Assembly: GCA_937997485.1 (NCBI GenBank)
Contig: CALKTH010000009.1
Span: forward strand, 187,538 to 251,537
Source of the DNA: an uncultured Acidimicrobiales bacterium
GTDB taxonomy: Bacteria; Actinomycetota; Acidimicrobiia; Acidimicrobiales; SZUA-35
Length of the DNA: 64,000 bases
Direction: 5' to 3'
How positions within the stretch are numbered: the stretch's first letter is position 1; every line of letters begins with the position of its first letter. Below the pieces are notes generated by a model. The model saw only the letters and a list, made by a program, of their open reading frames with translations. It did not search any database and was not told where the DNA came from. Positions 43,301 through 44,374 of this stretch are shown here, piece by piece. The translations under genes were made by a program, and so were the position numbers.

Positions 43301-44374
43301 CTAAAGGTCGGGAACGACCTGGTAGTGCTCACCGCCACCGAGGGCGAGCACGTCGTCGAGCCAGGACGTGCCGTAGAGCTCGGTTTCCTGGGCCATGTCG
43401 GAGGGTTCGCCCTCGGGTGTGGTCTCGAGCGTCCAGGCTTGCCGCTTGTAGGTCCAATTCTCTCGATGCAGCGCGTGGGCCCGCTTCCACCAGGGAATGG
43501 CGGCCTCCCGCCCTTCAACGCGGAAGAGATGCTGCCCCATTTCGAAGCAGGCTGCGGCTTCGGCGTGTTCGAGAGGCCGGGGCGCCGCTCGTGCAATGAC
43601 GTCATCGGGTGAGAGGGCAAAGCGGCTCGCTGCCCCGTTGGCGACCCAATCGGCAATAGCCGCCCGGTAGTCGAGCCCGATGTCAGGCATCTTCTTCAGT
43701 TCGGTGAGCGCAATCTTCATGCGCTCCGGGAAGTCGTCCTGGATCTCGATCTTTTGGTACTCGCTGGCCGTGATGGATGCTGCCTCGGCCGGTCGAACCA
43801 TGGTGCCGGTCTCATCGATCCAGACCGCCATGGGCACGTTGGAGATCCCCAGCAGCTCATCGACCAGGTGTGCGGAGTCGACCAGCGCTGGATGCGTAGG
43901 TGCTGCGATCTCGATCCAGTGGCGTGCCTGTTCCGGCTGGAGATCGAGCGCAACCGTGACGACGCTGAGACCCTGCGCTTCGAACTCTTCATGCAGTGCC
44001 TGCCACCCGGGCAGGCTGGTGCGGCAGCCTCACCAGGACGCCCATGCGACGAGCAGAACCTTTCGTCCATGGAGGGCGGAAAGCGAGAAGGGATTGCCGT
44101 CGATGTCGGGGAGGACGATCTCTGGCACTTGTGCCGTGGTGAGCGCTGTGCCGCCGCTTTCGGGGCCCAGGGCGTGCAGGCCTCGTTCTTCGTCGGTGAT
44201 CAGAGGCATGCGAAGCCTGGCTGCCGCTGCCGTGACATCGAGATGGCCGGTGGGCAGCACGACGTCGGGAGCGGGGACGCATTGGGCTCCCTTGCAGAGG
44301 CCTTCGGGTTTGGGGTCCCAGCCGGTGCGGCTGGCGAACACCGCAGGGTCGACCTCGAGCGATTCCAGGATCAT
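43301..44374 (-). CDS. Probable selenoprotein, ResA/TlpA-like thioredoxin fold with WASW-U-G-C motif (357 aa, Sec115)
   Basis: Track ORFs 44030..44794 and 43301..43837 are in frame and separated only by TGA 44032..44030; read-through gives [38 protein letters not shown]. Confidence 0.88.
43998..44016 (-). other. SECIS-like hairpin
   Basis: GCCUGCC-CGGGU-GGCAGGC starting 13 nt after the UGA; loop begins 20 nt after the UGA and has G at loop position 2. Confidence 0.75.

Follow-up and report, generated by a model that had tools for sequence, protein, structure and literature searches.

A Probable Thioredoxin-Fold Selenoprotein with an In-Frame UGA Codon in an Uncultured Marine Member of the Acidimicrobiia

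Introduction

In the genome of an uncultured marine member of the Acidimicrobiia, an open reading frame list breaks one stretch of the minus strand into two ORFs, 44030..44794 and 43301..43837, and a TGA codon ends the first of them. Coordinates are those of the window, which is the whole stretch of 64,000 nucleotides that was analyzed (assembly GCA_937997485.1, contig CALKTH010000009.1). The locus raises the question of whether this TGA ends a gene or is decoded within one. The source assembly is a metagenome-assembled genome (MAG) of 4.86 Mb in 158 contigs, 92.8% complete and with 64% GC. The region very probably holds one intact gene encoding a redox selenoprotein of the thioredoxin fold, whose internal UGA is decoded as selenocysteine (Sec), a conclusion drawn from comparative sequence analysis. 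In the annotation, the two listed ORFs should be merged as one Sec-containing CDS, and the gene would mark the organism as a selenium user. The selenoprotein family itself is already known; it entered the catalogues in 2008, NCBI has a curated model for it, and the present gene adds nothing new in kind. The remaining interest lies in the biochemical function of the family and in an N-terminal Cys-x4-Cys domain.

Results

The minus strand contains a single frame from ATG at 44374..44372 to TAG at 43303..43301, with one internal stop only. This stop is the sole in-frame TGA (44032..44030, minus strand); it is codon 115 and falls within W-A-S-W-U-G-C. The start codon agrees with homologs, which begin MIL, VIL, or MLL. 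A previous reading of the letters alone (the sequence-only reading) had proposed a minus-strand frame from ATG 44374, split at this TGA, and a Sec redox protein of 357 aa. The frame and the ORF list bear out the former, and the latter is supported by the conservation of the TGA, a SECIS hairpin, and a family match, all given below. The gene and its internal codon are as follows:

43301..44374, minus strand: complete predicted selenoprotein CDS, 357 codons plus a TAG stop (43301-43303); member of NF041054 (WAxxUGC_long)
44030..44032, minus strand: UGA codon 115, predicted selenocysteine U115 in W111-A-S-W-U115-G-C117; TGA in 79/79 readable related loci, Cys codons in Cys homologs, reads without variant

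Related loci were taken from one-genome-per-species contigs queried with the post-motif part of the protein only, to avoid bias against TGA. The best 80 loci are all from Acidimicrobiia. TGA is found at codon 115 in each of the 79 that are readable there; the eightieth is truncated. Fourteen relatives gave 20 family matches above the cutoff, each with a single TGA at the same codon, and a 301-genome sample of the phylum gave 16 family members, 16 of them with TGA at codon 115. Three full-length Cys homologs (L099, L100, and L101), checked as DNA, have a true TGT or TGC at position 115. This position had been singled out earlier for comparison between TGA and Cys, and homologs have TGA or Cys codons there and never another residue. 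Reads at the TGA had been singled out as well; contigs from three marine-metagenome runs have no variant at 44030-44032, showing TGA and neither TGC nor TGG.

Searching 5.8 billion clustered proteins yielded homologs of two kinds. The first is full-length (344-368 aa, 46-57% identity) and has WASW-C-GC. The second consists of fragments of about 235-242 aa with 60-71% identity, which begin right after the motif and are ORF-caller products of Sec forms. By its codons, the combination of TGA in near relatives and Cys in distant homologs is a classical Sec/Cys pair. All family members found in the sampled Actinomycetota genomes are Sec forms, a sign that selenium is probably important to what the family does.

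Bacterial SECIS elements have been modeled as hairpins with a loop of 3-9 nt, a stem of 4-16 bp, a G in the first two loop positions, a distance of 16-37 nt from the UGA, and a minimum free energy of <= -7.5 kcal/mol (PMC13188914). A search for a bacterial SECIS had been proposed with the sequence-only reading, and a hairpin fitting the published model was found after the UGA:

43998..44016, minus strand: candidate bacterial SECIS hairpin GCCUGCC-CGGGU-GGCAGGC, 6-7 bp stem, loop at 44005-44009, 20 nt after the UGA

Its loop (CGGGU, 5 nt), stem, spacing, and energy (-14.2 kcal/mol) all lie within the four constraints of the model, and the loop retains G at position 2, followed by G/U. The hairpin is kept in 72 of 72 distinct sequences, with 92.5% of cells paired. 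None of 500 shuffles reached the observed pairing and covariation values, and controls slid along the alignment were only 25-65% paired. Compensatory substitutions occur at the three outer pairs. In one case Leu CUG->UUG is matched by Gln CAG->CAA, both changes being synonymous, and in another a double flip turns GC/CG into CG/GC. The inner four stem pairs are invariant across the 72 sequences and are uninformative for or against pairing. RNAalifold predicts the same 6 bp helix. None of the three Cys forms inspected has the hairpin. The peptide that it encodes, L121-P122-x-W124-Q125, is invariant in Sec forms and varies in Cys forms, a pattern that constraint on the codons by the RNA would produce. 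The fold energy of the whole region, in its GC-rich context, is no better than that of shuffles, and the hairpin and its conservation alone stand out.

The hairpin is also visible in the metagenomes. In Logan contigs of the three marine-metagenome runs, depth rises 5-10x exactly over it (43985-44020), and long contigs break there. It seems that the hairpin stretch of about 30 nt is identical across many co-occurring organisms and tangles the assembly graphs.

The Sec machinery is largely present in the source genome. The sequence-only reading had named selA, selB, selD, and tRNA-Sec(UCA) as the genes to look for, and all except selD were found. Genes selA (411.6 bits) and selB (285.2 bits) are adjacent on contig C129, and a tRNA-Sec with anticodon UCA (63.7 bits) is on contig C25. 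Neither HMMs (TIGR00476 and NF002098) nor tblastn with a same-genus SelD found selD in the assembly. In the relatives selD does not lie beside tRNA-Sec, and the ORFs near the tRNA-Sec of this genome gave no selD. Six of six same-genus relatives have selD, and among all 20 relatives 15 have it. Of these 15, 14 also have a family member, whereas the five without selD have none (Fisher p = 0.0004). Because selD is found in every same-genus relative and the family co-occurs with it, the missing selD is likely an assembly or binning gap.

The selD gene of the relatives shows a parallel to the present gene. Of the 15 relatives with selD, 12, among them all six of the same genus, have a selD match with one in-frame TGA. 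The translated motif is G-A-G-U-G-C-K in L103 and L105 and G-A-G-U-S-C-K in L106, sharing the U-x-C spacing with the protein described here, and a similar short GC hairpin lies about 10 nt after the UGA of selD. When the three runs were mapped on a relative's selD, many short fragments with 80-95% identity were recovered; they come from several organisms and are not assignable to this genome. Some of these selD-like fragments have depths similar to this organism's, and binning would drop such fragments.

A decaying Sec trait is the alternative on which selD bears most directly. In that case selD would truly be lost here, and UGA 115 would lead to termination or to rare insertion of another residue. 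The failure of both HMM and tblastn searches speaks for such a loss. The flanks of a same-genus selD also map inside one contig here with no selD between them, although synteny (about 73% identity in scattered blocks) is too poor to tell a gap from a loss. Decay is nevertheless very unlikely. The genes selA and selB and the tRNA-Sec are intact, the TGA and the SECIS hairpin are perfectly kept, and the assembly is an incomplete MAG in many contigs. All same-genus relatives have selD, selD-like fragments occur in the same metagenomes, some at similar depth, and among the 21 genomes this is the only one that is family-positive and selD-negative.

Other explanations concern the TGA itself. As a nonsense mutation or a sequencing or assembly error, it would leave a pseudogene or an artefact, and the split made by the ORF caller agrees with this. 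The conservation of the TGA in all 79 readable related loci and in all 16 phylum-sample members refutes that explanation; moreover, the three runs show no variant, and both halves of the gene have dozens of invariant residues and are under strong purifying selection. Its probability is negligible. The same split, and nothing else, would favor two separate genes or a TGA read as Trp or Gly under an alternative code. Two genes would divide the thioredoxin fold in the middle of the active site, Cys homologs of full length are known, and a one-chain model has a pTM of 0.89. TGA terminates 802 of 1083 long ORFs genome-wide, as well as three neighboring genes; it is the main ordinary stop, and thus the genetic code is not reassigned. 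The residue aligned with the TGA is Cys, never Trp or Gly. The Cys homologs, the one-chain model, stop usage, and the aligned Cys refute both ideas, which hardly deserve further consideration. Decoding of UGA 115 as selenocysteine in one intact gene is the reading retained here.

Curated family models are useful for placing such a gene. The sequence-only reading had given a label like "ResA-like WAxxUGC" for this protein, and the label is correct. NCBIfam model NF041054 ("ResA-like WAxxUGC motif-containing protein," WAxxUGC_long, equivalog) matched the protein, with Cys written for U, at 480.8 bits (cutoff 300), and residues 1-353 align on profile positions 1-350 of 354. Scored straight on the genome DNA, the model gave 474 bits with one TGA. 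The W-A-x-x-U-G-C motif that defines membership is present as W111-A-S-W-U115-G-C117. Motif positions 2-4 vary slightly among relatives (WASW, WASY, WSSY, and WSTY). Five relatives (G001, G005, G006, G009, and G016) have two full-length family paralogs each, both with TGA, and contig C142 of relative G017 has one full-length family copy beside a partial second copy with TGA.

Shorter thioredoxin-fold ORFs of about 200 aa with one in-frame TGA were also seen several times in the relatives (for example G003:C1:40513-40899, G005:C48:14099-14443, and G006:C80:2102-2440). These are probably other Sec-containing redoxins. The same family search flagged none in this genome.

The predicted protein has three parts. 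Their extents, and that of a repeat within the third, are as follows:

44150..44374, minus strand: N-terminal domain, residues 1-75, with C27 (44294-44296) and C32 (44279-44281) on a beta-hairpin
43775..44134, minus strand: thioredoxin-fold (TlpA/ResA-like) domain, residues ~81-200, with U115-G-C117 and a cis-Pro-type N179-V-P181
43304..43726, minus strand: C-terminal helical region, residues 217-357, from the secondary structure of the model
43457-43561, minus strand: one TPR-like repeat, residues 272-306, from a profile match to solved structures

An AlphaFold model built with 36 homologs is one compact chain (pLDDT 90.1, pTM 0.89). Pfam matches AhpC-TSA/Redoxin on residues 81-191 only, with a weak GSHPx match. 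The central domain superposes on ResA, TlpA, and DsbE with an rmsd of about 1.9 A over about 115 residues; Foldseek matches to ResA/DsbE/TlpA have E ~1e-10 and TMt 0.72-0.78, and profile matches to solved ResA/TlpA/DsbE structures range from 1e-13 to 1e-20. No PDB structure extends over the full chain (TMq <= 0.37). In the profile alignment the first Cys of CxxC falls on U115, and one residue is deleted (3kcm: WasWCG.Cr vs WATWCPpCR). This profile alignment to TlpA-like structures confirms the proposal that U takes the place of the N-terminal catalytic Cys and that the resolving Cys is at +2 rather than +3.

The flanking parts gave no Pfam match at E <= 5. The CKGAQC noted earlier in the N-terminal extension is placed at C27..C32, and both cysteines are invariant in 36 of 36 full-length homologs and in 75 of 75 Sec-form loci. 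A stand-alone model of residues 1-80 has a mean pLDDT of 89.7. In a fold search the N-terminal domain had no significant PDB neighbor (best E 1.7), and its profile, run against 1.84 billion representatives, found no clearly different architecture; besides full-length forms and pieces ending at the TGA, it matched many short fragments that are truncated or look frameshifted. The C-terminus had been described as helical or TPR-like on the basis of ENWTYKRQAW. The helical, TPR-like character holds, but the location does not; ENWTYKRQAW (305-314) is a helix that follows the TPR-like match. The NWTYKRQAW helix is invariant.

Membrane anchors and signal peptides are characteristic of TlpA/ResA/CcmG. 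Neither is seen here, as judged by hydropathy and by the folded N-terminal domain of the model. Kyte-Doolittle values (19) peak at 1.11 over the whole protein and at 0.59 in its N-terminal part. With no hydrophobic segment, the protein should be cytoplasmic, unlike TlpA/ResA.

Sequences upstream of the start may indicate how the gene is transcribed and translated. A TACCGT 6 nt upstream of the ATG, reported in the sequence-only reading, was found again at 44386..44381:

44381..44386, minus strand: -10-like hexamer TACCGT, 6 nt before the ATG, with similar hexamers upstream of the start in homologous loci

In 44 of 71 homologous loci a TANNNT stands 5-8 nt ahead of the start codon; AACAGT or AACAAT, at about the same spacing, appears to take its place in most of the other loci. 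Most homologs have no Shine-Dalgarno sequence. TACCGT is probably the promoter -10 box of a leaderless mRNA, and translation from such mRNAs is probable for the family as a whole.

Gene context gives little clue to function. A FUR-family regulator (42806-43270, plus strand; Pfam FUR, 3.8e-18) is convergent to the selenoprotein gene, with stops about 30 nt apart. It is not assignable to Fur, PerR, or Zur, and it is common to only about 3 of 80 loci. Neighbors in the window are common to only 3-4 of 80 loci, and there is no conserved operon. The commonest neighbor elsewhere is a gene of the PAC2 family (proteasome-assembly-chaperone-like), which in 27 of 78 related loci (for example L044:6402-7658) directly follows the family gene in the same orientation, and which is absent from the window. 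A 775-aa antisense ORF (43680-46007, plus strand) "matches" all 80 loci; it was rejected as a mirror-frame artefact of a conserved GC-rich gene and is no real gene. Separately, a database protein of 526 aa (P0038) looks like the family protein fused to PAC2 by read-through or a frameshift.

Discussion

Insertion of selenocysteine at UGA in bacteria depends on SelB, and from this established decoding a working scheme can be proposed. SelB carrying Sec-tRNA(Sec) would recognize the hairpin and insert selenocysteine at the UGA, giving the 357-aa product. This would be a soluble cytoplasmic protein. U115 would act as the attacking nucleophile, and C117 would resolve it by forming a small, tight U-G-C selenenylsulfide ring, one residue shorter than that of CxxC. 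Work on CXC peptides and variants of thioredoxin, reportedly by Woycechowsky & Raines in 2003, would lead one to expect a ring of this size to be under strain and rather oxidizing. The protein may thus be a thiol/disulfide-type oxidoreductase that acts on a partner. The C27-x4-C32 pair may serve as another site for redox chemistry or ligand binding, and the partner may dock on the TPR-like helices of the C-terminus.

A further proposal, less likely than not, is put forward tentatively. The protein might be a distinct three-domain cytoplasmic selenoenzyme rather than a TlpA or peroxiredoxin with Sec swapped in. The C27-x4-C32 domain and U115-G-C117 could then act together as a redox relay within the protein or make up a four-chalcogen site that binds a metal, a metalloid, or a persulfide, and the TPR-like tail could hold a specific partner.

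The main functional rival is a selenoperoxidase of the peroxiredoxin or glutathione peroxidase kind, in which peroxide would oxidize U115 to a selenenic acid and C117 would resolve it. AhpC-TSA is the top Pfam match, GSHPx matches weakly, and a 2008 paper names the family "Prx-like (UGC-containing)." The FUR/PerR-type regulator convergent in the window would fit a peroxidase, as would a GSHPx gene, MarR, and Usp near one Cys homolog. This function is rather unlikely, however. The PxxxTxxC signature is lacking, as position -3 is Ala and position -7 is not Pro, and the W-A-S-W-C and N-V-P (cis-Pro) motifs are of the TlpA/thioredoxin type. NCBIfam scores for ResA/TlpA far exceed those for BCP and GPx, the best PDB matches by sequence and by fold are ResA, TlpA, and DsbE, and the neighborhoods are not conserved. 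A thiol/disulfide-type oxidoreductase remains the preferred reading of the motifs.

Peroxiredoxins (AhpC/TSA, BCP, and Sec-Prx with TxxU) share with the present protein the Pfam AhpC-TSA/Redoxin match and the Sec at the position of the peroxidatic Cys. The Pfam AhpC-TSA domain also covers TlpA-like proteins. In place of the peroxiredoxin signature PxxxTxxC/U, the protein has L108-V-A-W-A112-S-W-U, with Ala at -3 and Leu at -7, and TlpA-type motifs instead.

ResA, TlpA, and CcmG (DsbE) have the same thioredoxin-fold subtype, the W-x-x-W-C context, and a cis-Pro-type loop. Their active site is C-x-x-C, whereas that of the present protein is U-G-C, one residue shorter and with Sec first, a spacing that is unusual for the thioredoxin fold. 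They are extracytoplasmic, and this protein has no membrane anchor or signal peptide. Unlike them, it also has an extra N-terminal domain of 75 aa with Cys-x4-Cys and a helical C-terminal region of 140 aa. Genes for cytochrome c or Cu-site maturation were not seen among the few neighbors examined.

The closest counterparts are families of predicted selenoproteins. The name "WAxxUGC" was not found in the searchable literature, and the family is printed under other names. In the 2008 paper it is listed as a predicted selenoprotein, and the published UGC-containing Prx-like/TlpA-like selenoprotein family comprised 46 Sec and 855 Cys sequences in GOS. The present protein has in common with that family a pfam00578/TlpA-type fold, the UGC motif, and many Cys homologs, a likeness drawn by motif and domain and not by sequence. 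The 2008 paper found the family commoner in non-marine samples, while the present gene comes from marine metagenome runs. With NF041054 the protein shares the same motif, the same three-part architecture, and a full-length match with no structural difference, and the gene is a member of it.
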